This document shows, one piece after another, positions 2,078-43,257 of a stretch of 64,000 bases of DNA (its first letter is position 1; each line of letters begins with the position of its first letter). The notes under the pieces were generated by a model, which was given only the letters and a program-made list of their open reading frames with translations, made no database searches and had not been told where the DNA came from. Origin of the DNA: a virus; the IMG/VR virus record IMGVR_UViG_3300027747_000004, positions 46,995 through 110,994 of that record; one strand, 5' to 3'. Both the position numbers and the translations under genes were made by a program.

Positions 2078-2095
2078 TTGTCGATAGGAGTGAGT

Positions 2096-2554: not shown

Positions 2555-2563
2555 GGAAATACC

Positions 2564-3532: not shown

Positions 3533-3534
3533 TC

Positions 3535-4083: not shown

Positions 4084-4096
4084 CTAAGGAGTTAAT

Positions 4097-4696
4097 ATGA
4101 GTGCTACCTCTGCTCCGTTTGGCCTTCGCCCCGCGTTTCACCCTTCGGGTCTGGATCGCGCACAAGCGCTGGCTGGCGGTATTACATCGGGTTATGCAAC
4201 CCAAATCTTGAAGGGCCAACCCGTTGCCTACTCGGCTTCGGCAGGTGTCATCGTTCCCCTCACTACCGCCCCTGCTGCTGGCTCTGCCGTAGCCTGGTCC
4301 GGTGCCTTTGCTGGCGTTGAGTGGACCGATACCACCGGTCGTCGTCGCGTGTCCAACTACTGGCCCGCAAGCACCGCGTACCAAACTGGTTCGTGCGTCG
4401 CTTATTTCTACAACGACAACAACATCGTTTACGAAATCCAAGCAGACGGTTCGATGGCTCAAACCACAATTGGTAACGAGTACAACTTCACCAATACCAC
4501 CTCTGGTTCTTCCACAACCGGTCTGTCGCAATGCACTTTGGGTGCTTCGACTGCTGCTGGTAACGGTACCCAAGGCCAAATGCGCGTGGTTGATCTTAGT
4601 CAAGCGGTGGATAACGCGTGGGGCGACGCCTACACCGTTGTTCGTGTCGTTAACGCGCAGTCGCAGTTCTTCGGCGCTTTCACTGCTATCGCATAA
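4097..4696 (+). CDS. Putative capsid decoration/cement protein, copy 1
   Basis: Beta-rich, A/T/G-rich, APFGLRP N-terminus, directly upstream of the major capsid gene; strong SD. Confidence 0.6.
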   Translation: MSATSAPFGLRPAFHPSGLDRAQALAGGITSGYATQILKGQPVAYSASAGVIVPLTTAPAAGSAVAWSGAFAGVEWTDTTGRRRVSNYWPASTAYQTGSCVAYFYNDNNIVYEIQADGSMAQTTIGNEYNFTNTTSGSSTTGLSQCTLGASTAAGNGTQGQMRVVDLSQAVDNAWGDAYTVVRVVNAQSQFFGAFTAIA

Positions 4697-4708
4697 GGAG
4701 AATAAATA

Positions 4709-5623: not shown

Positions 5624-5639
5624 TACCAGCAAAGGCCTT

Positions 5640-5671
5640 GGCGGGGGGCCTTAATCCCCCGCCCCATTTTT
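5640..5671 (+). terminator. Rho-independent terminator after capsid copy 1
   Basis: GGCGGGGG/CCCCCGCC stem followed by a T run. Confidence 0.7.
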
Positions 5672-5702
5672 AACATCGGTCAAACTTTTCAAGGAGCAGA
5701 CC

Positions 5703-6953: not shown

Positions 6954-6966
6954 GGAGTGAAATACC

Positions 6967-8523
6967 ATGGCAACAAAGAAATCTAGCGGCGGTTTCGCCC
7001 AGATGCCTAAGATGATGACCAATGAGCCCTCGGCCATTCTGAAGCTGAAAAAAGGTGGCCACGTAGCTTCGGCTCACAAGGACGAGCATGGCCACACCAA
7101 CATGAAGGGTGATGCCTTCAAGGCCAAGTACGCCATGGACAAGGCAGAAGATGGCGCGGCTCCCAAAAAGCCGTCCATGGCCGAACGTCGCAAAGCGATG
7201 TCCGGTGCCCTGCTTAACTCCAAGAAGGGTGGCAAAGTTGCAAAGCATGAAGATGCCGCGCAGGACCGCGCCATGATCAAGAAGGCCCTGGCAGGCAAGA
7301 AGTTTGCTGCTGGCGGCACCATTAAGGGTAATGCTGGCAAGTTTGCTAAGACCAAAGTCGTTGACGGTGACAAAAAAGACACCGCCAAGGGCACCGGTGT
7401 TGTGAAGATGGGCAAGCCCGCTGGTTACAAAACCGGCGGAACCATTGAAGGCAACGCTGGCAAGTTTGTCAAGACCAAAGTGGTTGGTGGCGACAAGACC
7501 GACAAAGCACACGGTACCAAGGGTATCAAAGAGGGCCAGCCTGCTGGTTTCAAAAAGGGCGGCAAGATTGGTTGGGAAAATCGCCCAGCCGATGATGGCG
7601 ACCATTTTGACCCGGCTCATGGTACTGGTGGCGTGCGCGAAGGCAACGCTGGCGGCTACAAAAAAGGCGGTGCTGCAAAAAAGCATTTTGCCACGGGGGG
7701 CAGCGTTAATGATGCTGGCCGCGCCGTGGCAATGCCCCGCAAACCTGTGTCTCGTCCCGTAGCAAACAGCTTGCAATCTGGCACCTTCAAAAAAGGTGGC
7801 AAGGTCAAGAAGTATGCTGATGGCGGTAATGTTAGTGGTGGCATGGGCGGCACGGGTGGTACTACGCCGATGGATTACGCAATATCATCAAACCAATCTG
7901 CGTCAGTGCCGGGCGCACCTATAGGTGCAACTTTTGATGGCCCGGCACCGATGAATCCTTTTGGAGGCATGAATCCCAACATCGGCAAACCCGGCGCAAC
8001 AATCATGCCAACCATGGGAACAACTTCGCCAGTTCCCGCTGACCTGCAACAACAAGGACAGCAAGCGGCAATGCAGAAAGCGGCAATGCAGCAAGCGGCA
8101 ATGCAGCAACCACCTATGAGTCAGCAGCAGCTAATGCAGCGTGCCCCAATGGGTGGCTTTGGTGGTATGCGCCCCCCAATGGGCGGAATGCGTCCTCCGA
8201 TGGGTAACATGCGTCCAATGCCGGTTGCCTACAATCCGAACGGCGCTACCAAGCTGTACAAAAAAGGCGGTAAGGTCAAGAAATTCGACATCGGTGGAAG
8301 CACTGGCAACGACATTCAAGATCTGTCCAATGGCGCGTATGCTGGAACCTACAAGAACCAGCGTGATGAAAACGAACGCGACCGAGAAGCCATCTTGGGG
8401 GCACCAGGAAGGGCGTATGATGCTGTCAAACGTCTGCTTGGAGGAAAGCCTGGCGCGGGAGCCGGTCGTGGGATGGTGAACCCGCCTATGGCCAAAAAAC
8501 GCGGTGGCGGCGCTAAGTGCTAA
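6967..8523 (+). CDS. Lys/Gly-rich repeat protein (KKGG motifs), putative internal core protein, copy 1
   Basis: About 12 x-[AK]-x-GG motifs; very basic; SD AAGGAG. Confidence 0.7.
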   Translation: MATKKSSGGFAQMPKMMTNEPSAILKLKKGGHVASAHKDEHGHTNMKGDAFKAKYAMDKAEDGAAPKKPSMAERRKAMSGALLNSKKGGKVAKHEDAAQDRAMIKKALAGKKFAAGGTIKGNAGKFAKTKVVDGDKKDTAKGTGVVKMGKPAGYKTGGTIEGNAGKFVKTKVVGGDKTDKAHGTKGIKEGQPAGFKKGGKIGWENRPADDGDHFDPAHGTGGVREGNAGGYKKGGAAKKHFATGGSVNDAGRAVAMPRKPVSRPVANSLQSGTFKKGGKVKKYADGGNVSGGMGGTGGTTPMDYAISSNQSASVPGAPIGATFDGPAPMNPFGGMNPNIGKPGATIMPTMGTTSPVPADLQQQGQQAAMQKAAMQQAAMQQPPMSQQQLMQRAPMGGFGGMRPPMGGMRPPMGNMRPMPVAYNPNGATKLYKKGGKVKKFDIGGSTGNDIQDLSNGAYAGTYKNQRDENERDREAILGAPGRAYDAVKRLLGGKPGAGAGRGMVNPPMAKKRGGGAKC

Positions 8524-8524
8524 C

Positions 8525-8550
8525 AGCAGGGGCTTCGGCCCCTGCTTTTT
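8525..8550 (+). terminator. Rho-independent terminator with UUCG tetraloop
   Basis: AGCAGGGGC-TTCG-GCCCCTGCT followed by TTTT. Confidence 0.9.
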
Positions 8551-25138: not shown

Positions 25139-26650
25139 ATGCCAAGAGATAGTAGTGATGATATAACTGCAAGCACACCTGGTGCAGTGCTTGATCCCGG
25201 CAATTCGAGGCGCGACCCTTATTGGCGTATGCCTACTGAAGCTGAGAAAGCAAAAGCATCTTATGATGCCGCATACGCAGCACTTAGTCCTGCGCTCAAA
25301 GCTAAAGTAGAAAGCGGTCAACTTAGACTTGACATCATTGAGTCCAATGTAGGCGGAAGCCATAATTCTGAAATGGCACCCTCTGGCATTCGCGGTTTTA
25401 CTGCGCCTGCGGGTGGAGATATGTTGAATGTGTACGACATCAATGGTAATTTAACTAAACAAGTTAATGCTCACGGTGATGATGGCGGTTTCTTTGATCG
25501 AGTGTTTAGCGGCGTTGGAGATTTCTTTGCTGACCCAGCAAAGGCAACCACTCAGTTTTTTAAAAATCCAGGAGTAACAGAGGCCACCTTGGCGGCTGCT
25601 GCTTTATACGGAATGCCTGCGCTTCAAGAGCTTGCTGCCGGAACTGGGGCGGCGGCTGGTACTGCAGCTTCTGTTGCACCAGAAGTTCTTGCTGCAGATT
25701 TAGCGGCGTATCCAACAGCTGGAATTGTTGGCGATGTTTCTGCTGCGGCTTCAGGCATCCCATCTTTACCCGCGAATGATGTATATGTTCCACCTGAAGC
25801 AGTAAGCACGCCTCCTAACTTACCCGCGAATGATGTATATGTTCCACCTGAAGCAGTAAGCACGCCTCCTAACTTACCCGCGAATGATGTATATGTTCCA
25901 CCTGAAGCAGTAAGCACGCCCCCTAACTTACCCGCGAATGATGTATATGTTCCACCTGAAGCAGTAAGCACGCCTCCAGGAATACCTGCATATGATGTAT
26001 ATGTTCCACCTGAAGCAGTAAGTGGGCCAAGCTTAACTGCTTCGGCAATAGTAAAAAGCTTAATTGCTGGTAAAAACGCAATAGACAGCGCAAAGTCATT
26101 GTTTGGCACATCGCCACAAGGCTTAACGCAGCAAGGGCTTAACATGCTAAACCCTTCAGGTGGCGGTAGTGTGTCTTCACAAAACTTGCAAAGCACCGGT
26201 CTTACAAGCACTGCGCCTTCAGGCAATGAAGGCATTTTAAAGCAGCTTGTGCAAATGTATCCGCAAATGGCTAACGTATCGCCACAAACTATGGCGGCAA
26301 TTTCGCCGCATATGCAGCAGATTGAGCAAACACCAATGCCTGAAGAGCAGCCTCGCTACTTTGCTGAAGGCGGGCTTTCAAGCCACAAACCTGAATTTAT
26401 TACAGGCGCAACTGGGCACTACGTTAAAGGTCGTGGCGATGGGCAGTCTGATGACATTCCTGCAATGCTTGCAGATGGCGAGTATGTGTTTGATGCAGAC
26501 ACTGTTGCAGCACTTGGTAATGGCTCTTCTGATGCAGGTGCAAAACGTTTGGATGAAATGCGAGAAGCTATTCGTAAGCATAAACGCTCTGCGCCTATAC
26601 ATAAAATTCCACCAAAGGCCAAATCGCCTTTAGAATACATTAAAGGATAG
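25139..26650 (+). CDS. Putative internal virion protein with an 18-aa tandem repeat
   Basis: C-terminal G.GDGQSDDIPAML.DGEYV..AD.V..LG.GSS.AGA..L motif; FAEGG motif. Confidence 0.6.
   Translation: MPRDSSDDITASTPGAVLDPGNSRRDPYWRMPTEAEKAKASYDAAYAALSPALKAKVESGQLRLDIIESNVGGSHNSEMAPSGIRGFTAPAGGDMLNVYDINGNLTKQVNAHGDDGGFFDRVFSGVGDFFADPAKATTQFFKNPGVTEATLAAAALYGMPALQELAAGTGAAAGTAASVAPEVLAADLAAYPTAGIVGDVSAAASGIPSLPANDVYVPPEAVSTPPNLPANDVYVPPEAVSTPPNLPANDVYVPPEAVSTPPNLPANDVYVPPEAVSTPPGIPAYDVYVPPEAVSGPSLTASAIVKSLIAGKNAIDSAKSLFGTSPQGLTQQGLNMLNPSGGGSVSSQNLQSTGLTSTAPSGNEGILKQLVQMYPQMANVSPQTMAAISPHMQQIEQTPMPEEQPRYFAEGGLSSHKPEFITGATGHYVKGRGDGQSDDIPAMLADGEYVFDADTVAALGNGSSDAGAKRLDEMREAIRKHKRSAPIHKIPPKAKSPLEYIKG
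25766..26023 (+). repeat. 54-bp coding tandem repeat, about 5 copies (LPANDVYVPPEAVSTPPN)
   Basis: Units start at 25766, 25820, 25874, 25928 and 25982 (last one degenerate). Confidence 0.95.
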
Positions 26651-29651: not shown

Positions 29652-30854
29652 ATGGCAACCACGCCTGTTAAATCTAGTGTAGACTCATTAAGTGGGTTTG
29701 ACCCAAGTTTGACTGTGCCATTTGGCGCAACTGCACCAGCATCTTCACCTGCTGCAGCCACATATGAAGACTTTGCTGCTTCTAACCCTGGTGCCACTGA
29801 AGAGCAATACACTGATGCAATGCGAAGGCGTGCAGCAGCGCCTGTTGCAGCAGAAGCTGACATTGACCCCTTGGCGCCATACGTGCGACGTGGGCCAGCA
29901 CCTGCAGCTCAAAAAGCTAATGAGGGACTTGGCATAAGTGAGATTGGCGCAACTCTTGGTGGCGCAGCCATTGGCTCACGTGTGCCTAACTACGTTAACC
30001 CAGATCTGACTGCTGCCAAAGTTGACTTAACTCGTAATGCAGCGTATGAGCAGTCATTGGTTAAGCCTTTGCAGGCTACACTTGATCAAGCGCACATGGC
30101 GCATCAAGCTGCACAAACTACACTTTCTGACGCTGCTATGACGCGTGATGCTGCGCATGCTGCTGCGCAAGCTGTTGGGCTTAATCCTGCTGACATTCCA
30201 ATTGAAGATCTTGCCGGTGATAAATGGAACAAAAAAGTAGTAGGTTCAATGGGCCCAGGCGGCGATAGCGTTACAGAAGCTGCACGTAACTACAATGTTG
30301 AAAAAGGCTTGCCTGCAGATTACAAAGCCACTCGCAGCGGATTGGCAGTGCCTCGAAGCTATGAAGAGCCTGCGCATATTGCAAATGCGCGTCAGGCAGT
30401 TGTTGACGCTGGGCTGGCTCATAAAACTGCGCAAGCAGAAGCAGCAGCAGCGCAACTTGCTTTAGAGCAGGCAAAAGCTGCAAGAAACGCGCCGTCCATA
30501 GCACGAGCAACTGCAGCAACGCAAGGGGCACAAGCAACGCTTGATGAGTTATCCAAGGCAAAAACTTTCTTGGCTAAGATTCCGGGCTTTAACACAATCA
30601 TGGGCGGTTTGTCAGCAGGTGAGCTAGTGCATGCCTACAATGAGTTTCAGGCAGGCAATACTCTTGAAGGTGTAATGGCGGGTCTTAGTGGCGCAGGCGG
30701 CTTGGTTGGGCTAATACCACATCCGGCAGCTAAGGCCGCAGGCGCTATTATGTCTTTGCCGCCTCTTGCGTACCAAGGCTACCAAGCTTACAAAGAGCAT
30801 AAGACAAAGAACCCCGACCTAGGCAATTTTGCACCCGGCCGCGGTGACTATTAA
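29652..30854 (+). CDS. Ala-rich putative internal virion protein with a hydrophobic Gly-rich C-terminus
   Basis: Last gene of the + strand operon; converges with the - strand block. Confidence 0.6.
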   Translation: MATTPVKSSVDSLSGFDPSLTVPFGATAPASSPAAATYEDFAASNPGATEEQYTDAMRRRAAAPVAAEADIDPLAPYVRRGPAPAAQKANEGLGISEIGATLGGAAIGSRVPNYVNPDLTAAKVDLTRNAAYEQSLVKPLQATLDQAHMAHQAAQTTLSDAAMTRDAAHAAAQAVGLNPADIPIEDLAGDKWNKKVVGSMGPGGDSVTEAARNYNVEKGLPADYKATRSGLAVPRSYEEPAHIANARQAVVDAGLAHKTAQAEAAAAQLALEQAKAARNAPSIARATAATQGAQATLDELSKAKTFLAKIPGFNTIMGGLSAGELVHAYNEFQAGNTLEGVMAGLSGAGGLVGLIPHPAAKAAGAIMSLPPLAYQGYQAYKEHKTKNPDLGNFAPGRGDY

Positions 30855-31543
30855 AGCTCTTTGCCTTTAGTGTAAAACCACATACGCACTGAGCTCATTC
30901 CACCATCAATCAATACGTGGTTAGGAAATGCTTGGTACTTGTGGTACAGTGGATGGTTGATGAAGTTTTTCATCAGCAGGTACGCATCAGCATCCGGTGG
31001 TGACATACCCATGGCACGGTCAGTGTCAATGCACTTAACGTCAAAGTCATCCGCAAACTCTCGTTGCATTGCATGGGCTTGGTCATTTAGCAAGCCAATG
31101 ATGACTACACGCTTTTTCTTAATGCCTGTTGCAGCATACTCACCACAGTGTTTGCGCACCCCAAAGTCATGCTCAAGCTCTTTAACTGCTATTGCAATTT
31201 CTTGCTTTAGTGCACCGGCAATTTTCTTTGCTATGGCCTGAACGAGGTCATCAAGAGTGGGGTCCCAGGATGTACTGGTGGGCACTGGCGCCACTTCATT
31301 AGCAACTGTGGGTGGTTCTATTGCTTTTTGCTTTGGCACATCCAGCGCTATGCGAACCTTCAATTCTTTGATGAGCTCATATGCAGCTGGATATGCATTG
31401 AACGGGCGCTGCCGCGACTCAGGCAGCTTTTTTTGCGCTGCTTTGATTGCGTCAAAATACCCGTAACTGTGGTCTGTAACGTAGCGATGCGCAACAGTAA
31501 GCACCGTGTCAATTTCAGCTTTTGTCCAGAAAATTTTAGCCAT
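30851..31543 (-). CDS. Hypothetical protein with a C-terminal alpha/beta domain (possibly DUF2325-like)
   Basis: Own leader and -10 box; RVVIIG...ADAYLLMKNFINH. Confidence 0.6.
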   Translation of the reverse strand: MAKIFWTKAEIDTVLTVAHRYVTDHSYGYFDAIKAAQKKLPESRQRPFNAYPAAYELIKELKVRIALDVPKQKAIEPPTVANEVAPVPTSTSWDPTLDDLVQAIAKKIAGALKQEIAIAVKELEHDFGVRKHCGEYAATGIKKKRVVIIGLLNDQAHAMQREFADDFDVKCIDTDRAMGMSPPDADAYLLMKNFINHPLYHKYQAFPNHVLIDGGMSSVRMWFYTKGKEL

Positions 31544-31609: not shown

Positions 31610-31795
31610 TCAGGGTGCAAAGTCTGCTTCAGCTGCAACTTTTTGCCAATTTTCCACATTTACCAACTCAATCTTCAATGCCATCAAGGCTTCAATGATC
31701 TCTGGCAATGTGTAATGCTGCCGCAGCATGGCCTCAATGTACTTGCGTAGCACACGTTCTGCGGGATGCCGTAAGGCTAAATGTTGAGTAGCCAT
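31610..31795 (-). CDS. Small hypothetical protein
   Basis: Fills the gap after the TS-like gene in the same operon. Confidence 0.55.
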   Translation of the reverse strand: MATQHLALRHPAERVLRKYIEAMLRQHYTLPEIIEALMALKIELVNVENWQKVAAEADFAP

Positions 31796-32562
31796 TTTGA
31801 GAACTCGTACTTGGGGTTGATGACAGAGTTGCTAAGCTCCAAAGCTTCGTCTTTTGTGATGCGAGGTGGAGGGTCTGAGATGGATAGATATGTGGAGCTA
31901 CCCACAATTTCTTTGAACATTTCCATACGACGCACATAAACGTGGAAAGAACCTACGGTAACCGTAAGATTGCCCATGTTTACGCCAAGAATGGCAGCAA
32001 TGATCTCTTGCAAAAATGAGAACGTGGGCAGGTCATTGGCCATGCCCCATAGGATGTCTTGGCTGCGCATAATTGCACGAGCATTCAATTGACCATTGCG
32101 AATGCGAAACTCAATGGCAAGTGTGCAAGGCACATCTTTTGCGTCAATGTCCATGTGGTCAACGTCAGTGCCATACATTGGAATGACAGCACGGCGGCTG
32201 GTAGGGTCAGCCGTCAGCAACTTTACAATGTTGCGTACGCCATGGCGGCCAAACCAGTATGAGCCATAGTTGCTATTGAGCTTGCCGTTGGCAATGATTT
32301 TGCCCCACTGCGCTGCGTGATCTGCAATGGTCAGGTCATATGGATTGGCCTTGATGTACCAAGCCATTTCACGCTTAAGATACGGGATGTTGAGCGCACG
32401 GCCTTTAAATGCATTGAACCTGACGTACGGCCCAACTGTGTACGAGAAGTTTTCAATCTCCAGTGTTGTTTCGCCACGAGGCGTGGCCCATTCGCCGTAT
32501 TCACGCAGTACGTGGTACAGATTGATGAGGTCTGCTTCTTTATTGATAATCGCTAAGTCCAT
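31777..32562 (-). CDS. Thymidylate-synthase-family enzyme, likely dCMP hydroxymethylase-like
   Basis: SRRAVI, catalytic PC (DVPCT), RSQDILWGMAND with Asp at the specificity position, SFHVY. Confidence 0.8.
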   Translation of the reverse strand: MDLAIINKEADLINLYHVLREYGEWATPRGETTLEIENFSYTVGPYVRFNAFKGRALNIPYLKREMAWYIKANPYDLTIADHAAQWGKIIANGKLNSNYGSYWFGRHGVRNIVKLLTADPTSRRAVIPMYGTDVDHMDIDAKDVPCTLAIEFRIRNGQLNARAIMRSQDILWGMANDLPTFSFLQEIIAAILGVNMGNLTVTVGSFHVYVRRMEMFKEIVGSSTYLSISDPPPRITKDEALELSNSVINPKYEFSKWLLNI

Positions 32563-33487
32563 TGTTGCCTTCTGTGATGTGGTATGGTTGATCTGGATAG
32601 TTTTGGAGATGATACAACGGTGGTGGAAGCTTGATGGCTTTCACGTTGTTGTTTAGTGCCCATGCGTAGGCATTGTTACCTAGCGCAAAGATCTTTCGCG
32701 GCGTAAGTTGCTGAATGAAACTTGCATCAGATGGCGCACCAGCAGCGTTTTGCGTATTTGCCCAGTACAAACAGCTTTCAGGTACGCCCTCATCTTCAAG
32801 AACTGTTGCCAACATTCTGCTGGGGCCATCGTTGTCAAGAAAGTTGATAAAAGGTACTACCACAGCTGATGACTTAACATTCATCTGAGGGCCTTTGTCG
32901 CACAGCATAAGGTAGTTGTCTTGCTTAAACGAACCGCCACCTGTGCTTTTGTTTGTGATGCTTGCGTATTTGATTTTGGCAAACAAGTCTTCAACATCAT
33001 CATTGACATAGTCGTAGTGTACAACTGTTAGATGCGTTTGCAATGCCAGTGCGTCATACGCAGCGTACACTTGACGCAATTGCGTAGTGTTGTCAAGATA
33101 CTCCTCACCAAGCCGCGCAGAAAATGCCTGCTCACAAACCTCATAGGCAGGTTGGCACAATACCACTACTGCACCACGTGCAAGTGCAATACGCTCAAGC
33201 ATGCGGCGACGCGGCATGTCAACACGTGAGTTGCCACCGCGGTACGCATCAGCGTAGATGGGCTCAGACAACCATGACCTATCCATGATGAGAGTGTCAT
33301 CAAAAGTCAAGGCAGGCGACATCGCACGAAAGTACAACTTGCACAGTTGCTCAGACGTTAAGCCTGAGTAAGGGCCATGCTTAACCATGTGCACCATGCT
33401 TGCGGTACTTTTGCTGATGATGACGCGCAGCTTTTCAGCAAGTGTTGACTTGCCTGCGCCGTCTGGGCCTTCTAAAATGATGATCAT
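32540..33487 (-). CDS. Thymidylate-kinase-like dNMP kinase fused to a UDG-like C-terminal domain
   Basis: IILEGPDGAGKST P-loop and MDRSWLSEPIY; C-terminus PF...S..L...L...G...YWAN...PRKIFALG..A. Confidence 0.75.
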   Translation of the reverse strand: MIIILEGPDGAGKSTLAEKLRVIISKSTASMVHMVKHGPYSGLTSEQLCKLYFRAMSPALTFDDTLIMDRSWLSEPIYADAYRGGNSRVDMPRRRMLERIALARGAVVVLCQPAYEVCEQAFSARLGEEYLDNTTQLRQVYAAYDALALQTHLTVVHYDYVNDDVEDLFAKIKYASITNKSTGGGSFKQDNYLMLCDKGPQMNVKSSAVVVPFINFLDNDGPSRMLATVLEDEGVPESCLYWANTQNAAGAPSDASFIQQLTPRKIFALGNNAYAWALNNNVKAIKLPPPLYHLQNYPDQPYHITEGNNGLSDYQ

Positions 33488-34371
33488 AAAAAAGATTGTA
33501 GAGTTTTAATAGTTGTAAGTCGCGGTGTTACCAGCACTTCTTGTTTTTGACCCTTTATGACCCTACGTAGATCATTGGTGTCCATGGACTCAAGCTCATG
33601 CAGTTTAAAGCCATATGATGGCCCAACAGCTGCAAGCTCAATAGGGTCGCCGCCAAGTACGCAACCTGCATACGCTGCATGTAAATAGCGTACACGCCAC
33701 CAACCACATCCAGCGTGCTCATATGTGGGGCACAACACGCCTTTGTAAAAGCCATATTCCCAAACAATATCACTTTCAAGTTTGCGTGGCTGGCCCAAAT
33801 GCTTGCCACCAACAGAGTACACAGGCCAACTAAGACGTTGCGCACTTGCCCACAGGTGTGCGCCGGTTGACAATGACGCGTTGTACCACATTTGCTTACG
33901 TTGGCCCCATGACAGCTGATGCGTAGGTGGGCATACGTATAAGGGTGATGGGTCCCATGGCAAAATACATTCGACAGGTAAACCCATTTTGTCTTTGTTG
34001 CCCCAAGGGAACAATGGTGCAATCCATACGCGTGACTGAAGCTTTTCAACATCAATTACATTTGCCCATGTGGGCAGAATCTCTTGGAAAGACCAATCGT
34101 CGAGGCAGATGTATGCATTGGGTTTTTGTTCCAACGCATACACTGCCCCGGCGTGGTCAATCGCGTTGTGGTCCAATGGGTAAACATACACAAACACGGC
34201 GTCAAACCCAGAAAGATCTTCGCCAACAGTCACCGCACGGTGCGCCACATTGTGGCCCATCAAACGATACGCCATTGTCATGATCTCTGGAATAGAGACG
34301 AACTTCGTAGAGCTTGCCCTATCAGGATGATTGATGTGCGTCTCTGTGACGCCAGTGATGAGTATGTTCAT
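33484..34371 (-). CDS. Putative GT-B-fold DNA/nucleotide glycosyltransferase
   Basis: MNILITG beta-1, LMGHNV, FDAVFVY, GVLCPTY...WWRVRYLHAAYAGCVL resembles the GT-B C-terminal motif; gene context. Confidence 0.55.
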   Translation of the reverse strand: MNILITGVTETHINHPDRASSTKFVSIPEIMTMAYRLMGHNVAHRAVTVGEDLSGFDAVFVYVYPLDHNAIDHAGAVYALEQKPNAYICLDDWSFQEILPTWANVIDVEKLQSRVWIAPLFPWGNKDKMGLPVECILPWDPSPLYVCPPTHQLSWGQRKQMWYNASLSTGAHLWASAQRLSWPVYSVGGKHLGQPRKLESDIVWEYGFYKGVLCPTYEHAGCGWWRVRYLHAAYAGCVLGGDPIELAAVGPSYGFKLHELESMDTNDLRRVIKGQKQEVLVTPRLTTIKTLQSFL

Positions 34372-34652
34372 TATGCAGCTTCGGCTTCTTCTTCAGCTTC
34401 GTCTTCGTACACAGCATCTTCAAGAGTGATGTCGCCACGTCCAGCATCATAGTGCACGTCACTGGAACGACCACCTGCAGCAAGGTAGTCTGCAATGGTC
34501 ATGCCATCTTCGTACAATGCAAAACGCGCATGTGCAAGGGAGCCTTCACGCTTTGGATTGACTTCCACATTAATGCGGATGACAGTGTTTTTGTCAATGT
34601 TGGGGCCACGTTCTTTGCGGGTTTTTTCGACGACTTCTTTGGTATCGGTCAT
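34371..34652 (-). CDS. Small protein with an NPKR-x-GS domain and acidic tail
   Basis: NPKREGSLAHARFALYEDGMTIADYLAAGG...D..YD...G.I.L; EDEAEEEAEAA tail; first gene of the operon. Confidence 0.7.
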   Translation of the reverse strand: MTDTKEVVEKTRKERGPNIDKNTVIRINVEVNPKREGSLAHARFALYEDGMTIADYLAAGGRSSDVHYDAGRGDITLEDAVYEDEAEEEAEAA

Positions 34653-34720
34653 ATAGATCTTTCTAAAAAGGATGAAAACTAACAGTGAATAACGTCAATG
34701 GTCAGTACTTGCATTATACA
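34653..34720 (-). promoter_or_regulatory. Promoter of the modification operon
   Basis: TGTATAAT at 34720-34713 followed by CTGACCATTGA. Confidence 0.55.
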
Positions 34721-36087
34721 TTACGATGAATGTAATCACGTACAGCAGTCAACAATTTTTGTTGCGTTTTGTCTTTGCGCCTCACAGCAAGCATAATTGC
34801 CTCATCTACAGTGTCATTTGCAATGATGTGATGCACCATGATGTTGTTTTTCTGGCCCTGGCGCCACAATCTACGAATGAATTGCTCATAGATCTCCAAT
34901 GACCAAGTCAATGAGTACCAGATGACTGCATGCCCGCTATCTTGTAAGTTGAGGCCATGACCCGCCGACATAGGGTGCGCAAGCAAGACTGGTATTTCGC
35001 CGGCATTCCAGTTCGTAGTAATAGAATCAAGCTTAGTGCCAACGACGCCTGAACCAATAACAGGCGCATTTGGGAATGCCTTCCTGAGTCTTTCCAGGTC
35101 GTGCTGAAAATGGTACCCAATGATGCAAGGCTGTCCTGATAATTCTTCCACAAGGTCCATAACCGCTTCAGTCTTTGCGTTGTGTACATGCGTTGTTACT
35201 CTTTCATTGCCATCAAGATATGAGCCGCCATTGGCAATTTGTTGGCCCTTCATAACTGCAACAGCTGCGTTGACTGCTGTCACCGTGCCTTGTTCAAGCT
35301 CAATGGTCAAAGCTTTTTCAAAAGCATCGTACATTTTACGTGCAGCAGGTGGAAGTTCGACTCTGACATCGTTGTAGGCCAAGCTAGGTAAGTCAAGGTG
35401 ATCAAGAGCTGCCATCCGCAGCACTTTATTGTTAAGCTTTTTCTGGATTCTTGCTTCGCCATCTGGTTGTAACTTCCACTCATAGCCATTGAAGCCAGAA
35501 GGGTAAAAATACTCTTCCCTAAACCTTGACACATAGGGCCCAAACGTGGCCCCCTGGTCAATAATCAACTGCGGTCCAAATATGTCTAATAGACTATTGG
35601 GCGCAGGTGAACCAGTGAGGCCCCAGCGTCGGTCGAACCGATCTAACAAAGGCTTCAAAGTTTTAAAGCGCTGCGTTTGCGTGTTCTTCATGAATGAGAT
35701 CTCGTCAACGGTAAGAATCTCAAAGGGCCATGCTTGTCCACGCAATTTGCTTGATAGCCAGCCAAGGCCTTCAAAGTTGATGACGTAAATGTCGTGGTTG
35801 GCAGCCAAGGTTTTTTCTTTTTTGGCGCCATGCAAAACGCCAACTGAGTACCCTTCAAACTGCTCCCACTTTTTCACCTCATTAGGCCATACAGTGTACG
35901 TTGGCCGCAATGGCGCAATCACAAGCATTTTCCTAGCCATGCTTGACAGACGCAGCGTACGAAACGCGCTTAGCACAATGGCAGTTTTGCCTAGCCCTGG
36001 GTCTAACCATAGTTGGCCAGACCCATGCTCAACCAGAAACTTTACGGCTTCTTTTTGGTATTCATGAGGTTCCCAAAACACGGTCAA
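34714..36087 (-). CDS. SNF2-like superfamily 2 helicase
   Basis: PHEYQ, LDPGLGKT, VDEIS, GLTGSP, GHGLNLQ, QFIRRLWRQGQ. Confidence 0.9.
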   Translation of the reverse strand: MTVFWEPHEYQKEAVKFLVEHGSGQLWLDPGLGKTAIVLSAFRTLRLSSMARKMLVIAPLRPTYTVWPNEVKKWEQFEGYSVGVLHGAKKEKTLAANHDIYVINFEGLGWLSSKLRGQAWPFEILTVDEISFMKNTQTQRFKTLKPLLDRFDRRWGLTGSPAPNSLLDIFGPQLIIDQGATFGPYVSRFREEYFYPSGFNGYEWKLQPDGEARIQKKLNNKVLRMAALDHLDLPSLAYNDVRVELPPAARKMYDAFEKALTIELEQGTVTAVNAAVAVMKGQQIANGGSYLDGNERVTTHVHNAKTEAVMDLVEELSGQPCIIGYHFQHDLERLRKAFPNAPVIGSGVVGTKLDSITTNWNAGEIPVLLAHPMSAGHGLNLQDSGHAVIWYSLTWSLEIYEQFIRRLWRQGQKNNIMVHHIIANDTVDEAIMLAVRRKDKTQQKLLTAVRDYIHRNV

Positions 36088-36349
36088 TCCCTTCTTTTGA
36101 GTCGATCACATACACCTTGTGGCCTCGGCTTGCAAGTTGGTCATGAACTTTTTGTTGCAATGGTGATACCACACCTCCGGGACGCTTAAGTTCAACCCAT
36201 AGCACTTCACCATTTTCAAGAGGTACCACACGATCAGGCCAGCCGCGTTGAAAATGCACACTTAGCTTTAACGTTAAAAGACCATGCTTTTTACATTGCT
36301 TGCTAAAGTATGCCTCAAGGTCTCGTTCCAGCAGTACACGTGTCACCAT
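36062..36349 (-). CDS. VRR-NUC domain nuclease
   Basis: E..LE...GWPDR....G..LWVELKRPGG..S.LQ. Confidence 0.85.
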   Translation of the reverse strand: MVTRVLLERDLEAYFSKQCKKHGLLTLKLSVHFQRGWPDRVVPLENGEVLWVELKRPGGVVSPLQQKVHDQLASRGHKVYVIDSKEGIDRVLGTS

Positions 36350-36984
36350 TTGCAAGGCCCGCCATTGTCTTTACGAAAGTGGCAGTACCTGCAATTTGCG
36401 TTAGGCTTTGGCGCAAAGATCTTGTCGTTTTCGATCTTTAACATGCGGTTTGTCATCCATGTTTTCATCAAACCAAAGTTGTCACGCGTTACAGTTGCGC
36501 ATGTTACAGGCTTTTGCAGGTCAATGAATGCTAGCTCAAGCTCAATAGTGTCAACTTCAGGGTACAGCGCAAAGACTAGCGTGGCATAAAGCCGCAGCTG
36601 CTCTTCGTAATCACGAAGTTTGCCTGTCTTCCAATCAATGATGCGAGCTTCGTTGCCTTTGATTGCCAACAAGTCGATCTGGCCCCGTAGCCATACATCG
36701 CTATCTTTAAAGCCGCATGATGACCAGTCGCGCCGCACGCCTACGTCATGCTCAGGCAAGACAACGTTATAGAAGCTTTTGATGTCTTCAATGAAGTCAA
36801 GCCAAGGCTCAAGCTCGGCAGTAACCAATGGAAACCCATCAAAAGCTTCTTCAAACTCTTTGTGGATACGTTTACCACGCTCTGCAGCAGGGCCAGTGGG
36901 CTCTTGCAAATGATCAATACGCGTAAGCTTGTACTTGTAGGGGCAGCCTTCATACGTTGAAATGCTGGAGTGTGAATAGCTCAT
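36343..36984 (-). CDS. PD-(D/E)xK exonuclease, Cas4/RecB-like with putative Fe-S cysteines
   Basis: SHSSI..Y..CP, G.RIH, GQIDL, IIDWKTG, QL..YA, C..C.F......C. Confidence 0.85.
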   Translation of the reverse strand: MSYSHSSISTYEGCPYKYKLTRIDHLQEPTGPAAERGKRIHKEFEEAFDGFPLVTAELEPWLDFIEDIKSFYNVVLPEHDVGVRRDWSSCGFKDSDVWLRGQIDLLAIKGNEARIIDWKTGKLRDYEEQLRLYATLVFALYPEVDTIELELAFIDLQKPVTCATVTRDNFGLMKTWMTNRMLKIENDKIFAPKPNANCRYCHFRKDNGGPCKW

Positions 36985-38798
36985 TTGGTTTCCTGATAGT
37001 TGTTGCCAATCTTGTAGTCACTAATCATTGGCACGTCCATGGTTAGTGCATTGCACATTGCATTGACCAAGCACTCAGCCTCACGTTCAAGCGCGTCAAT
37101 AGGGGCACTGATGACCAATTCATCATGCACACTAAGTAGCAGCCTGCTACCTTTACGTGTCTTCTGATACAGCAGCATTGCAGCTTTGGCTTGGTCAGCA
37201 GCAGAGCCTTGAATCAACAAGTTGACGCCTTTATAGTCAAACTCACGCATACGGCCATTGATGACCTTAGGTGGCTCCATTTTGACAAGCCTGCCGCCAA
37301 TAGTCTTAAGGGGCTCACCAAGCTTGTACCTTGTACGCATGGTTGCCTGCATGACCTTAAGTCCCGGCGCCACAGCTGTTGTGTAGGCATTCATCAGTGT
37401 GCGCGCCATGTCAAGGTCAACACTAAGCATATCACTGATTTTGGTTGGACCTGCGCCATACAGAATTGCAAAGCTTACGCCTTTTGAGTACGTACGACTA
37501 ACAGGCCTGCCACTTGCCTCGGTCATCAAGTTGGCTGCGTACGTATGCAAATCGGCACGTGCATCTGCCTGATACTGCTTCATGAGGTTGCCACCTTCAA
37601 AGTGGGCAAAGATACGAAGCTCTTGAGCATTGAAGTCACATGCAATAAGCTTGTGGCCTTCGTCAGGCAAAATGAAGCTACGAATCAATGGCAATGGTGC
37701 AACCTTTAAATCTGCAGGAAGCGTGACTACTGGATACCTGATGGGGGCGTTTTGAAAATTTGGTGTGGAAGATAGTCGTCCAGTTCGAGTTCCACCGCGC
37801 TCACCTCTAACGCTATTCCAGTTTGTATAGATTCGACCCGTAGTACTTGAAGCTTGTAGCCACGGTTCAATAAAAGTCGATAAACAAGTGGAAAGATTTG
37901 CTCGAAATCTGAGGACATCACGTAGCTCCAAGTTGGTAAGCATTTCGTCGAATGCCTCTTTAGTGGCTTGCAATTGCCCCTTGTCTGTTGCAGGCCATTG
38001 TTTATTTTTGTCCCAGTGCTCAGATGCATAAATACATTCGACAAGCTGTTGATCGCTGTCGACATTCAATTCAGGAGAACCTAACAATGAACGTACCCAA
38101 TCATTACAAAGCGCAATGTCTATTTCTGCTTGTGCCTTTGCTTTTTCAAGGCCTTCCACATCTACACGTATGCCTAGACTTGAGTTTTCAAGCAGCATCG
38201 GAATCAGTTCCATCTCACGGCGGTAAGGCACCAACTGCGCAGGCAAAACCTTTGCCTCCAAATAGTCGTAGAGCAAAGCGGTAAGCCGTACGTCAGCCAT
38301 TGCATAGCGACCCACCAGCGCCACTGGGCCGCGACAGATGTATGCTCCCCATGTAGACTTCTTTCGCTTGGCTTCTAGCACGTTCTCAATGACCCAAGCC
38401 TTTAGCTCATCCCGTTCGTCTGGTTGCGCAAGGCCCCATGTGACAACTAGGTCTTTGAGAGACAGAGAGCGAGTATGAGGGTCATGCAAAAAAGCCAGAA
38501 CAAGGGTATCGTTAATTCGATTAGCCGCAGGAGTGTCGAGCCCAAAATGTACGTTAATGACGTCCAAATCGAATGCAGCGTTGTGAAAGCATATCTGCCG
38601 AGTTGACGTGAAAATGGCTTTGAGTATCTCATGCACTTCATCCTTGGTGGCATTGTTGTCGTGTAAATGACCAAACGCGTAGTAGTCATCGCGTACTTCA
38701 CCTTCAGGGTCAAAGATAGCAAGGCCCACCGGCACTGGTGGGTACTTGGGCCTTGCTTCTATTCCCTCGGTTTCAAAGTCGAGGAAGATCGGTTTCAT
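36981..38798 (-). CDS. polA: Family A DNA polymerase with 3'-5' exonuclease
   Basis: LDFETE, HNAAFD, YAMAD; TGRLSS; motif A DFNAQELR; motif B RTYSKGVSFAILYG; motif C VHDEL. Confidence 0.95.
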   Translation of the reverse strand: MKPIFLDFETEGIEARPKYPPVPVGLAIFDPEGEVRDDYYAFGHLHDNNATKDEVHEILKAIFTSTRQICFHNAAFDLDVINVHFGLDTPAANRINDTLVLAFLHDPHTRSLSLKDLVVTWGLAQPDERDELKAWVIENVLEAKRKKSTWGAYICRGPVALVGRYAMADVRLTALLYDYLEAKVLPAQLVPYRREMELIPMLLENSSLGIRVDVEGLEKAKAQAEIDIALCNDWVRSLLGSPELNVDSDQQLVECIYASEHWDKNKQWPATDKGQLQATKEAFDEMLTNLELRDVLRFRANLSTCLSTFIEPWLQASSTTGRIYTNWNSVRGERGGTRTGRLSSTPNFQNAPIRYPVVTLPADLKVAPLPLIRSFILPDEGHKLIACDFNAQELRIFAHFEGGNLMKQYQADARADLHTYAANLMTEASGRPVSRTYSKGVSFAILYGAGPTKISDMLSVDLDMARTLMNAYTTAVAPGLKVMQATMRTRYKLGEPLKTIGGRLVKMEPPKVINGRMREFDYKGVNLLIQGSAADQAKAAMLLYQKTRKGSRLLLSVHDELVISAPIDALEREAECLVNAMCNALTMDVPMISDYKIGNNYQETK

Positions 38799-39580: not shown

Positions 39581-39949
39581 CTAGTTTTTACGATACACGG
39601 ACAGTTCAAAAGACTTTGATGCCAAAGTCCCAGGTATTGTCTCACCGGCTTCCCATCGTTCACGGAAAATCGCTGAAGACAATCTTTTGTGCAGCAGCTC
39701 AAATTGCTTTGTTTCTGCTACGTATTCATAGAAGGTAGGCCAATCAACAATTGTAGGATTAGACACCTCTTTCATTGTGCATGATGCCTTGTCAGAGCCG
39801 GCCTTAGAAATGCCTTGCGCTGCCATTTGCTCCATGATGTCTGCTTCAAGAGCAGACAGCTTTTTTGTGAGCTCTTTTGCCTCTGCAGTTAGCTCTTCAC
39901 GTTTGCCTTTGACAGTGACAAACTCATCGATTAAGTCTTTAATGTTCAT
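39581..39949 (-). CDS. Coiled-coil hypothetical protein (replication module)
   Basis: Start MNIKDLIDEF overlaps the MazG stop; DW..FY.YV....F.LL.KR...GE.IPG. Confidence 0.65.
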   Translation of the reverse strand: MNIKDLIDEFVTVKGKREELTAEAKELTKKLSALEADIMEQMAAQGISKAGSDKASCTMKEVSNPTIVDWPTFYEYVAETKQFELLHKRLSSAIFRERWEAGETIPGTLASKSFELSVYRKN

Positions 39950-40334
39950 GTTTGTAGCTTTGCAATATGATTGCAATGTCGCCTTGCGGCGCAATCCAGC
40001 CTATAGGCTTTACAATGTCAAAGTGGTTACCACGCAAACTGCGAATATAGTCATTAGCAGGTTCTTTGCGCATGTTGGCTGCATGCACCAAAGCAAAGAT
40101 CGCGTCAAAGGGTAGTCCCATGGCATGAGCGCAGCCAAGCACAACGTATGTCAAATCAGCCAGTGCGTCAGCAGCCTCAGGCAAATCGCCATCCTCACAT
40201 GCCTTCATGTACTCACTAAGCTCTTCAAGGATGAACCTTGAAAAGTAGGAGCTTTCACTAGGGTCAAGTAGTTGCGGCTTATCGCCAATAGGCAATTGCA
40301 TTGCCTTACGGAACTCAAGGACTTTGTCGTACAT
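39939..40334 (-). CDS. MazG/HisE-like all-alpha NTP pyrophosphohydrolase
   Basis: EEL.E......D..E..DAL.DL.YV..G; VH.ANM.K; KP.GW..P. Confidence 0.85.
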   Translation of the reverse strand: MYDKVLEFRKAMQLPIGDKPQLLDPSESSYFSRFILEELSEYMKACEDGDLPEAADALADLTYVVLGCAHAMGLPFDAIFALVHAANMRKEPANDYIRSLRGNHFDIVKPIGWIAPQGDIAIILQSYKHEH

Positions 40335-42648: not shown

Positions 42649-42815
42649 GTGTTTTCCTGTGCCTCTCGGCCTTTTCTATACGCTTCTGCCAATGCCGCTG
42701 ACATTCGCATTGACGCCTTGGCGATTTGCAGCATGACTTTCCTGACCGCCCGATTAAACGCTGTGCGCTCACGCCACAACTTTAATCTGCGCTTGTTTTT
42801 TTGTCGTACTTTCAT
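42645..42815 (-). CDS. Small Arg/Lys-rich protein
   Basis: ATGA coupling at both ends. Confidence 0.55.
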   Translation of the reverse strand: MKVRQKNKRRLKLWRERTAFNRAVRKVMLQIAKASMRMSAALAEAYRKGREAQENT

Positions 42816-43051
42816 GTGTTTTTCTCTGCTCGTTCGTTCCATGCGGCAATGGCGCGTTTGTTAGCGTCTGCAAAAGCCTGATCGCGCGTCTGCCCTTCAA
42901 GGATAGAGTGCCGCACATCAGGCGCTTGTGCACCGCAGGAGTTGCAGATAGCCACTCTCCATCGGTAGGTATCGCCTTCTACTACGGTCACCCCTCGATC
43001 ACCGCAGAATGGGCATGGCTTGGCATCGGGTACAAAGTATTGTTCGTTCAT
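42812..43051 (-). CDS. Lar-like restriction-alleviation family Zn-ribbon protein
   Basis: KPCPFCG...C..CGAQ.P...AIAAWN.R. Confidence 0.7.
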   Translation of the reverse strand: MNEQYFVPDAKPCPFCGDRGVTVVEGDTYRWRVAICNSCGAQAPDVRHSILEGQTRDQAFADANKRAIAAWNERAEKNT

Positions 43052-43257
43052 GTGTTCCCCCTTGCTCGGATTGCTTGATAGGCTTGGTATGCATAGAAAT
43101 GCTCTTTGCACAACTTCATACAAGCCTCACGCTCATCGGCGCGGATGAGGTCAATAAGTCTTGACTCATATGCTTCTCTCCAATAAGGCTCACCTTTGAA
43201 GTTGTAGTCAGCATACGCTTCAGCTTGCTTTGCAAGTTCAATGTCTCGTTTGTTCAT
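43048..43257 (-). CDS. Hypothetical early protein
   Basis: DEREAC..LC...AIRARG motif; coupled. Confidence 0.6.
   Translation of the reverse strand: MNKRDIELAKQAEAYADYNFKGEPYWREAYESRLIDLIRADEREACMKLCKEHFYAYQAYQAIRARGNT

Follow-up and report, generated by a model that had tools for sequence, protein, structure and literature searches.

Can a short run of overlapping phage genes encode a route to glycosylated cytosine? The genes lie in a 64,000-nucleotide window (positions 46,995 to 110,994 of IMG/VR record IMGVR_UViG_3300027747_000004), where an initial annotation proposed a pathway yielding a glycosylated modified cytosine. The computational checks suggested there all turned out favourably: protein fold, thymidylate synthase (TS) residues, a kinase–uracil-DNA glycosylase (UDG) fusion, a MazG-like gene and synteny support that proposal. 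We consider it quite probable that the operon is a compact cytosine hypermodification system of the T4 type, in which 5-hydroxymethylcytosine (5hmC) would be made before replication and then glycosylated on DNA with a host sugar nucleotide. From folds, diagnostic residues, synteny and domain fusions, we infer the chemistry throughout.

Five overlapping minus-strand ORFs occupy positions 31610–34652, in the order and with the overlaps first described: p93 (34371–34652), GT295 (33484–34371), kin315 (32540–33487), TS261 (31777–32562) and p61 (31610–31795). Neighbouring genes overlap by 1 nt (p93/GT295), 4 nt (GT295/kin315, ATGA), 23 nt (kin315/TS261) and 19 nt (TS261/p61), and these overlapping stop and start codons suggest translational coupling. 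The source record is 110,994 bp long and appears to be an assembly chimera of two joined ~55-kb phages; contigs of relatives reach 53–58 kb. The description "small phage" is correct only because the record looks like two such phages, and would not fit the 110,994-bp record as it stands. No tRNAs were found in the window, and a nucleotide-level search of the operon DNA against 50,697 phage records gave no match.

The arrangement is strictly conserved. A gene-neighbourhood survey, proposed in the initial annotation, finds the order helicase–p93–GT–kinase–TS in 80 of the 80 related IMG/VR loci examined (GT identity 57–76%), which is far beyond chance. Relatives of GT295 are encoded in at least 517 IMG/VR loci; p93 lies upstream of the transferase gene in 77 of the 80, and the MazG-like gene keeps its position in related loci that reach that far upstream (38 loci). 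A dCMP-type TS homologue adjoins the kinase–UDG fusion in every locus examined, including that of the cultured phage AXL3.

TS261 belongs to the TS family (PF00303, 69.9 bits, cut-off 24.3; phrog_160, 6.3e-37). Its nearest PDB relatives are MilA CMP hydroxymethylase (2e-19) and T4 dCMP hydroxymethylase (3.6e-13), and it is 27% identical to T4 gp42 (E 4e-16). The DVPCT motif aligns with the catalytic Cys of T4 gp42 and MilA (ThyA C146), and the residue corresponding to ThyA N177 is an Asp that lines up with D179 of T4 gp42 and with MilA. Published residue rules, correlative and derived mostly from Straboviridae, define 5hm-dCMP synthases by N177D, L143D/E and retained D169: N177D denotes a dCMP substrate, L143D/E water access and a hydroxymethyl product, D169N is the mark of 5-hydroxycytosine (5hoC) synthases, with Asn169 in every tested one, and Leu143 is associated with methylation (PMC13326640). 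TS261 has L143D, retained D169 and N177D, the full 5hm-dCMP synthase signature, and this D/D/D combination is identical in 69 of 69 close relatives. The dCMP-type Asp noted at the outset is thereby confirmed and narrowed further: TS261 is most likely of the 5-hydroxymethyl-dCMP synthase type, judged from its sequence.

Other products can be weighed against these residues. Asp177 homologues yield methyl, hydroxymethyl or hydroxy products (PMC13326640), and RB69-type clusters contain the same kinase/GT/TS triad, so TS261 might instead make 5-methyl-dCMP, the Xp12 product, or 5-hydroxy-dCMP, the RB69 product, any sugar then being ether-linked to 5hoC. We regard this as very unlikely: L143D, D169 and N177D together disfavour both products, position 169 being Asp against Asn in all tested 5hoC synthases and position 143 Asp against the methylation-associated Leu, and a methyl group would offer the transferase no acceptor hydroxyl. 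An ordinary thymidylate module, with synthase and kinase beside an unrelated transferase, would agree with the AXL3 annotation and with the database names of the homologues ("thymidylate synthase", "thymidylate kinase"). It is extremely improbable, given that N177D disfavours dUMP, that L143D and the closest solved relatives point to a hydroxymethylase, and that AXL3, whose DNA is restriction-resistant, encodes ThyX separately. Thymidine hypermodification (5hmU, 5-HMUDK, aGPT-Pplase) was also considered and rejected, because every TS homologue adjoining the fusion has Asp177.

GT295 (295 aa) had been called GT-B-like, and its AF2 model is confident (pLDDT 90, pTM 0.88) and bears this out: it has two Rossmann-like domains and matches solved GT-B enzymes over its full length. 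The nearest structure is T4 beta-glucosyltransferase (BGT), both in the proposed Foldseek search (6.2e-6) and as the best VIA match (Z 17.9, 280 of 295 residues aligned); the T4 alpha-glucosyltransferase (AGT) scores VIA Z 15.4, and dozens of GT-B enzymes reach VIA Z ≥14. At the sequence level, no Pfam family matches GT295, none of 40 family members scanned against Pfam hits a GT family, the family profile (A6) found nothing meaningful among PDB sequences, and hhalign of profile A1 with T4 b-gt was not significant (probability 0.9%, E 0.058), so that no homology to the T4 beta-glucosyltransferase family (GT63) is detected. Since significant similarity to BGT, Pfam GTs and PDB sequences is lacking, acceptor and donor are assigned from fold and context alone. 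The protein belongs to phrog_14998 and to a family of 596 representatives (50% identity), which includes fusions to C5-DNA-methylase, UDG, dUTPase_2 or SAM-MTase domains. In Actinomycetia phage DSL-LC01, homologues lie beside UDP-galactopyranose mutase and MazG.

The fold alone would also suit an enzyme acting elsewhere, as small-molecule GT-B enzymes score nearly as high (SenB Z 17.3, PimA 15.5, BshA 15.2) and in a published survey ~65% of GT-containing phage contigs lack a base-modification gene nearby (Pyle et al., bioRxiv 2023.12.21.572611). 5hmC DNA could then be made while GT295 adds its sugar to a polymer of the host envelope, to a virion protein or to a small molecule. We give this a low probability: the GT295 gene overlaps that of the kinase and, in 80 of 80 loci, lies between replication genes and the TS homologue; some relatives carry C5-DNA-methylase or UDG domains as fusions; and the DNA enzymes BGT and AGT are among the top structural matches of GT295. 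A D/D/D TS homologue, which would form 5hmC, adjoins it across the 80 loci. GT295 is accordingly predicted from fold and context to glycosylate 5hmC in DNA, and its Pfam-less GT-B family is likely one of DNA glycosyltransferases.

The claimed dNMP kinase–UDG-like fusion is real. The N-terminal domain of kin315 (residues 1–175; 32963–33487) carries a P-loop (GPDGAGKST), a DRS motif of the DRx form and a thymidylate kinase (TMPK) fold, with M. tuberculosis TMPK at Z 15.1 and YorR at Z 14.6. The score of the protein against PF02223 is 26.1 bits, slightly short of the cut-off (27); of 40 relatives, 31 match at E ≤0.01. The protein belongs to phrog_761. The domain is a predicted dNMP kinase that would convert 5hm-dCMP to 5hm-dCDP.

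The C-terminal domain (residues 180–315; 32543–32950) is more divergent. Three fold searches with the two-domain model returned lists filled by kinase-domain matches, PF03167 does not match the window's own kin315, and phmmer of the homologue P0180 against PDB gave no informative match. In the family, 6 of 40 members match PF03167 (best 2e-8), among them P0180, P0190 and P0194 (35–39% identity), which match C-terminally at 34.9, 33.8 and 24.5 bits (cut-off 24.3), and the family profile against PDB finds family-4 UDG and UdgX, only at E ~0.006. By transitive homology the domain is putatively assigned to the UDG superfamily. Its catalytic motifs (motif A GE/DxPG, motif-B HPx) are not preserved in the window clade, where 12 of 12 members have LCDKGP and LPPPL instead, with Pro in place of the motif-B His; the HP motif (mostly HPQ) is kept in 24 of 28 wider relatives and in AXL3 and PW916. 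As the motif-B histidine is lost, the domain is probably non-catalytic in the window clade. We think that it serves as a non-catalytic module that docks the kinase to DNA or polymerase, or binds a pyrimidine.

The same architecture could be read as an enzyme acting on DNA, in which 5hmC is flipped out by the UDG-like domain and then phosphorylated on its hydroxymethyl group by the P-loop domain; the 5-hmdU DNA kinase would be the model, and phosphorylation would prepare further substitution. Fusion of a P-loop kinase to a base-flipping fold suggests such action, the full-length model (pTM 0.90) implies a fixed two-domain unit, in the related locus L159 the same core is adjoined by a protein that has the helical domain of 5-hmdU DNA kinase, and the SP10 5-hmdU DNA kinase is a weak structural match to kin315 (rank 35, TM 0.34). 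The kinase domain, however, is far closer to thymidylate kinases and keeps the TMPK-like DRS motif. In addition, kin315 has no match to the HMUDK helical domain PF18723, a downstream pyrophosphorylase-type enzyme is absent, and the phage ORFs scanned against Pfam include no second dNMP kinase to make 5hm-dCDP. A DNA-directed kinase is therefore highly unlikely, and kin315 is better read as a nucleotide kinase.

The MazG-like (PRA-PH) pyrophosphohydrolase said to lie upstream is confirmed on the minus strand at 39939–40334, ~5 kb upstream of the operon (PF01503, 57.6 bits, cut-off 21.3). It is 34% identical to the AXL3 NTP-PPase. Five distant loci (L151, L159, L163, L200 and L207), as well as AXL3 and PW916, have a MazG gene directly upstream of the kinase–UDG gene. 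From sequence it is predicted to be a dCTPase that excludes dCTP and feeds dCMP. As the initial annotation stated, sugar-nucleotide genes are missing from the phage ORFs scanned against Pfam (part of the ORF set); a dCMP deaminase was looked for and not found, and no host-DNA degradation gene was identified.

Assembled, these activities would form a five-step pathway. The MazG-like enzyme would turn dCTP into dCMP and so exclude ordinary C from the phage DNA, and TS261 would hydroxymethylate dCMP at C5 with methylene-tetrahydrofolate and water. The TMPK-like domain of kin315 would raise 5hm-dCMP to the diphosphate and host NDP kinase to the triphosphate, after which the phage family-A polymerase would incorporate 5hmC. 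Finally, GT295 would flip 5hmC out of duplex DNA and add a sugar from a host NDP-sugar, the host being the presumed donor because no phage gene for sugar-nucleotide synthesis was found. The resulting glycosyl-5hmC DNA would resist restriction enzymes and probably some CRISPR nucleases.

The closest functional parallel is the glucosyl-5hmC pathway of T4, which uses gp56 dCTPase, gp42 dCMP hydroxymethylase, gp1 dNMP kinase and alpha- and beta-glucosyltransferases. Step logic and order are alike, TS261 is a true gp42 homologue with the same D/D/D signature, BGT is the best match to the GT-B fold of GT295, and the MazG-like pyrophosphohydrolase of the window phage could serve to exclude dCTP. The differences are that the window kinase is a TMPK-like enzyme fused to a UDG-like domain and not gp1-like, that the single transferase has no detectable sequence similarity to BGT, and that no dCMP deaminase was found in the window phage. 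The T4-like phage is 169 kb, the window phage ~55 kb with a family-A polymerase. The view that the pathway is built from different parts holds for the kinase, clearly unlike gp1; it does not hold for TS261, homologous to gp42, or for the transferase, which shares the BGT fold.

Calling the system undescribed also went too far, since pathways of the same kind are already known from T4, from RB69 and DLP3 and from metavirome GT-B and ThyS clusters. RB69, DLP3 and RL38J1 carry experimentally characterised arabinosyl/hexosyl-5-hydroxycytosine clusters (Lee et al., NAR 2026, PMC13326640), in which a TMPK/YorR-like kinase, a first GT-B transferase and an Asp-type TS homologue are likewise clustered (PMC13326640). 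Their TS homologues, in contrast, are D169N and make 5hoC, and these phages carry genes for sugar-nucleotide synthesis; no UDG domain is listed for their TMPK/YorR-like kinases, which are accompanied by a separate gp1-type dNMP kinase (PMC13326640). A tblastn search with GT295 against the three phages gave no match.

Metavirome DNA GT-Bs (subclass III GT53, GT66 and GT94) transfer hexose, HexNAc or heptose onto 5hmC from host sugar pools, and IMG/VR GT-B matches often (~28%) adjoin ThyS (Pyle et al., bioRxiv 2023.12.21.572611). The 5hmC-glycosylating phage GT-Bs match T4 beta-GT at Foldseek E 1e-5 to 1e-7 (bioRxiv 2023.12.21.572611); GT295 falls in the same range as the GT53/GT66/GT94-type enzymes, a likeness of fold, and members of both groups are fused to C5-MTases. 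The tested metavirome enzymes need a C5-methyltransferase and a TET-like dioxygenase, which form 5hmC after replication, whereas 5hmC in the window phage would be pre-replicative. Kinase, UDG and MazG components are not mentioned in Pyle et al. (bioRxiv 2023.12.21.572611), nor are the operon's components in the MetaGPA paper.

Stenotrophomonas phage AXL3 and Pseudoxanthomonas phage PW916 offer a counterpart, a cassette of methyltransferase, MazG, "thymidylate kinase", "thymidylate synthase" and dCMP deaminase. It contains a full-length kinase–UDG fusion (31–35% identity) adjoining a D/D/D TS homologue and lies, as in the window, within a PolA–exonuclease–helicase replication module. It differs from the window operon in that its tailoring gene encodes a methyltransferase instead of a GT, an adjacent MazG gene and a dCMP deaminase are included, and the UDG motifs VGEDFG and HPQ are intact. 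AXL3 DNA is resistant to 35 enzymes whose sites contain G/C. On sequence grounds, the AXL3-type proteins named "thymidylate synthase" and "thymidylate kinase" probably act as dCMP hydroxymethylase and 5hm-dCMP kinase, respectively; if confirmed, this would give a residue-level reason for the restriction resistance of AXL3-type phage DNA.

UDG domains also occur fused to phage family-A DNA polymerases, active in SPO1-like and SP15-like phages and inactive in N4-like phages (NAR 2026, PMC13697223). Both settings place a UDG fold within replication or nucleotide machinery, beside C5-modified pyrimidines, in active and inactivated versions; the partner there is the polymerase and the genomes are T-modified (PMC13697223), while here the partner is a nucleotide kinase in a C-directed pathway. 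An intact AXL3-type (HPQ) domain may strip uracil or unmodified cytosine from phage DNA, and the degenerate form may tether 5hm-dNTP synthesis, perhaps with the overlapping GT, to the replication fork. As a combined proposal, with the intact domain as a quality-control glycosylase, the degenerate one as a docking module and p93 as a dedicated GT partner, this is speculative and rather unlikely.

The small NPKR-domain protein of the initial annotation, p93 (93 aa), has an NPK(R) motif invariant in 25 orthologues (N32, P33 and K34), a basic N-terminus and, in the window phage, an acidic tail. It has no match in Pfam, PHROG or PDB, its family profile (A4) finds nothing meaningful among PDB sequences, and the ESM Atlas returns only viral hypothetical clusters. 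In the distant locus L152 p93 is paired with a 30%-identical GT; the two are genetically linked and probably work together; on the speculative proposal above, p93 would be a dedicated partner subunit of this Pfam-less DNA glycosyltransferase family. Neither an NPKR partner protein nor a kinase–UDG fusion is mentioned in the literature searched. If the pathway is confirmed, the T4 strategy would be found packed into ~3 kb in uncultured ~55-kb phages of a very common clade. Enzymes of this kind are useful for 5hmC labelling and sequencing chemistry, and it is known that standard sequencing and restriction-based methods have a blind spot for glycosylated genomes.

Expression of the operon had been attributed to one promoter. 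The -10-like octamer TGTATAAT is indeed present on the minus strand (34720–34713), as a candidate promoter only: it overlaps the helicase stop codon (TAA, 34716–34714), has no -35 element 16–18 nt away and does not fit the extended -10 form TGnTATAAT, and a promoter and terminator scan of the region finds promoter-like sites at chance level, so that the promoter claim has no support beyond the octamer itself. In 60 of 67 distinct relatives the corresponding position holds a similar sequence, TGATA[CA]AAT, but within coding sequence.

Two further genes lie at the far end. The 61-aa ORF p61 is present as described, running across the TS stop, and is a conserved protein: an orthologue was detected in 27 of 80 loci, with 16 distinct sequences among them at 29–70% identity. 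Beyond it, p230 (30851–31543, minus strand) is the final gene of the same-strand block, and its membership in the pathway is uncertain. It matches nothing in Pfam or PHROG and has only weak, low-confidence structural neighbours in the ESM Atlas; a poor model weakly resembles DUF2325 and DpdD, and the gene is conserved downstream in 46 of 80 loci.

All five genes of the proposed cytosine-hypermodification operon lie on the minus strand, in the overlapping set described in the initial annotation. In order, these are p93, encoding a 93-aa NPKR protein (34371–34652), GT295, a 295-aa GT-B-like enzyme (33484–34371), kin315, a thymidylate-kinase-like (TMPK-like) kinase fused to a UDG-like domain (32540–33487), TS261, a thymidylate-synthase homologue (31777–32562), and p61, a 61-aa protein (31610–31795). 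The arrangement is translationally overlapped, with successive stop/start overlaps of 1, 4, 23 and 19 nt. Upstream on the same strand are PolA (36981–38798), a PD-(D/E)XK exonuclease (36343–36984) and an SNF2-type helicase (34714–36087). The same-strand block is closed by p230 (30851–31543), a conserved gene without a family match, for which the Atlas model (pTM 0.40) shows weak similarity to DUF2325 and DpdD proteins.

The single promoter originally placed at 34720 fares less well. The octamer TGTATAAT is present at 34720–34713. However, it overlaps the stop codon of the helicase gene, lacks a −35 element at 16–18 nt and does not follow the TGnTATAAT form; promoter-like sites across the operon region occur at a frequency no different from chance. 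Of 67 distinct relatives, 60 have a similar sequence, TGATA[CA]AAT, at this position; since it is located in coding sequence, its conservation is no proof of a promoter. The replication genes and the operon may simply share a transcript.

The whole IMG/VR record is 110,994 bp long, has ends overlapping by 127 bp and is labelled "complete". Self-comparison divides it into two collinear related halves, the first from 1 to ~55.5 kb (GC 55–62%) and the second from ~55.5 to 111 kb (GC ~48%), with common segments at 70–94% identity and an offset of roughly 55–58 kb. Because of these two halves, and because contigs of second-half relatives reach up to 53–58 kb, the 111-kb record appears to be chimeric, with two related ~55-kb phages joined in assembly. 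The low-GC one, phage B, carries the operon and would span about 8525–64000 of the window, positions 1–8525 belonging to the other phage. Homologues of the operon genes are absent from the other half of the record, where the helicase alone finds a match (37% identity). Phage B also contains tandem repeats at 25766–26022 on the plus strand (record 72760–73016; period ~54 bp, copies 92–95% identical), located inside a 503-aa plus-strand ORF (25139–26650).

TS261 matches PF00303, and its nearest solved relatives are MilA CMP hydroxymethylase (2e-19) and T4 dCMP hydroxymethylase (3.6e-13), with true thymidylate synthases ranking behind both; T4 gp42 shares 27% identity with it. According to a 2026 study that numbers positions as in E. 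coli ThyA (PMC13326640), N177D gives selection of dCMP, L143D/E accompanies hydroxymethyl rather than methyl products, and D169N is diagnostic of 5-hydroxy-dCMP synthases that depend on flavin, those of RB69, DLP3 and RL38J1. TS261 carries D143, C146, D169 and D177, as do 69/69 close relatives, which is the T4/MilA signature. The dCMP-type Asp noted initially is D177; D143 and D169 fit the hydroxymethyl type. Since these published diagnostic residues can be applied to TS261, its predicted product is 5hm-dCMP, the residue rule being correlative.

Residues 1–175 of kin315 fold like a thymidylate kinase, with Z 15.1 against M. tuberculosis TMPK and 14.6 against YorR, and carry a P-loop and a DRS motif; in fold searches with the whole model, kinase-domain matches took the entire list every time. 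The C-terminal 135 residues have no direct Pfam match. Full-length homologues (35–39% identity) match PF03167 (UDG) over this domain above the curated cut-off, and a PDB search with the family profile picks up family-4 UDG and UdgX (E about 0.006). The family alignment keeps Pro-Phe and Asn positions, which we take to be pocket residues of family-4 UDGs. The wider kinase-UDG family, including gp29 of Stenotrophomonas phage AXL3 and the protein of Pseudoxanthomonas phage PW916, keeps VG(D/E)xxx and HPQ, resembling UDG motifs A and B; the clade of the window has LCDKGP and LPPPL instead in 12/12 members. Because the motif-B histidine is gone in all of them, the domain is best read as UDG-derived and probably non-catalytic in this clade. 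The earlier description as a dNMP kinase-UDG-like fusion fits the kinase fold and the homologues' PF03167 matches. UDG domains, active or inactivated, are fused to phage family-A polymerases in modified-pyrimidine genomes, and polymerases also serve as docking sites for UDGs encoded in trans (PMC13697223). By analogy, a docking or base-binding role is favoured for the kin315 domain, and a uracil-repair role is possible for the AXL3 type.

GT295 has no Pfam match and no PDB sequence match, and the PHROG that it matched is one of function unknown. Its structure, predicted from an alignment of 27 homologues, is confident (pLDDT 90, pTM 0.88). The best Foldseek match is T4 beta-glucosyltransferase (BGT; 6.2e-6), and re-alignment gives Z 17.9 across 280/295 residues; the Se-glycosyltransferase SenB is tied with it (Z 17.3), followed by T4 alpha-glucosyltransferase (Z 15.4) and numerous other GT-B enzymes (Z 14–15). 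Since all of these match the model, the predicted fold is GT-B; the 295-aa ORF was rightly called GT-B-like and does have a glycosyltransferase fold in the model. Membership of the BGT sequence family is unsupported (hhalign probability 0.9%).

An exhaustive profile search defined a GT295 family of 596 cluster representatives, most of 330–360 aa; 0/40 sampled members match Pfam GT families. Fusion proteins containing the GT295 domain (P0318, P0325, P0336, P0340, P0227, P0228 and P0261; 566–990 aa) link the family to cytosine-C5 chemistry: in four cases longer members are fused to a C5-cytosine DNA methylase, one with a UDG domain too, and further partners are dUTPase_2 and SAM-methyltransferase domains. 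UDP-galactopyranose mutase adjoins the GT295 homologues of Actinomycetia phage DSL-LC01 and Erwinia phage FBB1. Judged by such fusions and neighbours, the family is tied to cytosine-C5 DNA modification, and both agree with a report on 5hmC-glycosylating GT-B enzymes of phages, whose Foldseek matches to T4 beta-GT have E-values between 1e-5 and 1e-7 and which often adjoin ThyS in IMG/VR (bioRxiv 2023.12.21.572611).

Inside the replication module of the 129-kb phage DSL-LC01, at 93284–96905, the genes that come after the GT295 homologue encode UDP-galactopyranose mutase, then a hypothetical protein and then a MazG-like protein, an order that suggests galactofuranosylated DNA. In the T4-like Aeromonas phage phiAS4 (14224–17496), three consecutive ~350-aa hypothetical proteins follow motA; because GT295 matches the middle one through its N-terminal domain (99 residues at 36% identity), all three are candidate DNA glycosyltransferases.

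The upstream MazG-like pyrophosphatase gene was confirmed at 39939–40334 (PF01503) and is a candidate dCTPase. MazG would convert dCTP to dCMP, which TS261 would hydroxymethylate; kin315 and then host NDP kinase would phosphorylate the product, PolA would incorporate the modified nucleotide, and GT295 would glycosylate it on DNA. No dCMP deaminase was found by tblastn. Pfam scans of 39 further phage-B ORFs revealed no sugar-nucleotide enzymes, in agreement with the first reading, so the sugar, if added, would have to be host-derived, as in T4 and in reconstituted metavirome pathways. A Lar-like restriction alleviation protein (42812–43123, minus strand; PF14354, 6.3e-11) in the early region of phage B is likely a second anti-restriction function.

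The cytosine-hypermodification interpretation is supported, but the kind of system is not undescribed, as had been proposed, because the predicted pathway would operate like that of T4 and resembles the triads of kinase, GT and TS in RB69, DLP3 and RL38J1, and because a survey of viral contigs has already noted that GT-B goes with ThyS (bioRxiv 2023.12.21.572611). It differs from known systems in the fusion of a TMPK-like kinase with a UDG-fold domain beside a dCMP-type TS, the NPKR partner p93, a GT-B family without a Pfam model, and the small PolA-phage chassis with its metagenome abundance.

GT295 relatives are encoded in 517 IMG/VR loci. The proposed gene-neighbourhood survey, run on 80 retrieved loci, revealed strict synteny: the order helicase-p93-GT-kinase-TS is the same in all 80, as far as contigs reach, and the positions of MazG, PolA and other replication genes are fixed too. 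At distant loci (33–42% identity), the core comprises kinase-UDG, a TS homologue and a dCMP deaminase, sits downstream of the same PolA-exonuclease-helicase block and in most cases adjoins MazG. In each locus examined, the kinase-UDG fusion has a dCMP-type TS homologue as its neighbour. The slot upstream of the distant core is variable, its occupants including an AXL3-type methyltransferase, a Dcm-like C5-methylase and a protein with a 5-hmdU-DNA-kinase helical domain. At one locus (L152) it holds homologues of p93 (44% identity) and then GT295 (30% identity), so p93 and the GT travel together.

Among 13 distant TS homologues (AXL3, PW916 and ten IMG/VR loci), 12 have Asp at positions 143, 169 and 177; the thirteenth has Leu at 143, the methyl type. 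This 454-aa protein (L195:7858–9222; L/D/D, with Leu143 and Asp177) has a long N-terminal extension and adjoins a kinase-UDG gene; its pattern is that expected of a dCMP methyltransferase (5mC). At L159:5786–6619 (IMG/VR 3300048805_000013), a PF18723 protein (helical domain of 5-hmdU DNA kinase, 1.1e-43) sits upstream of MazG, kinase-UDG and a D/D/D TS, which hints that 5hmC, not 5hmU, is the starting base for a DNA-kinase-based hypermodification there.

Two cultured phages have this core. AXL3 DNA is reported to withstand 35 restriction enzymes whose sites contain G/C and to be cut by AATT and TTAA enzymes only; the phage has a separate ThyX (PMC7504290). This resistance fits cytosine modification by the kinase-UDG/TS core, and the D/D/D TS and UDG-kinase genes probably explain it. 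In AXL3 (gp28–gp31) and PW916, the genes annotated as "thymidylate synthase" or "deoxyuridylate hydroxymethyltransferase", and as "thymidylate kinase", carry the D/D/D dCMP-hydroxymethylase signature and an intact-looking UDG domain.
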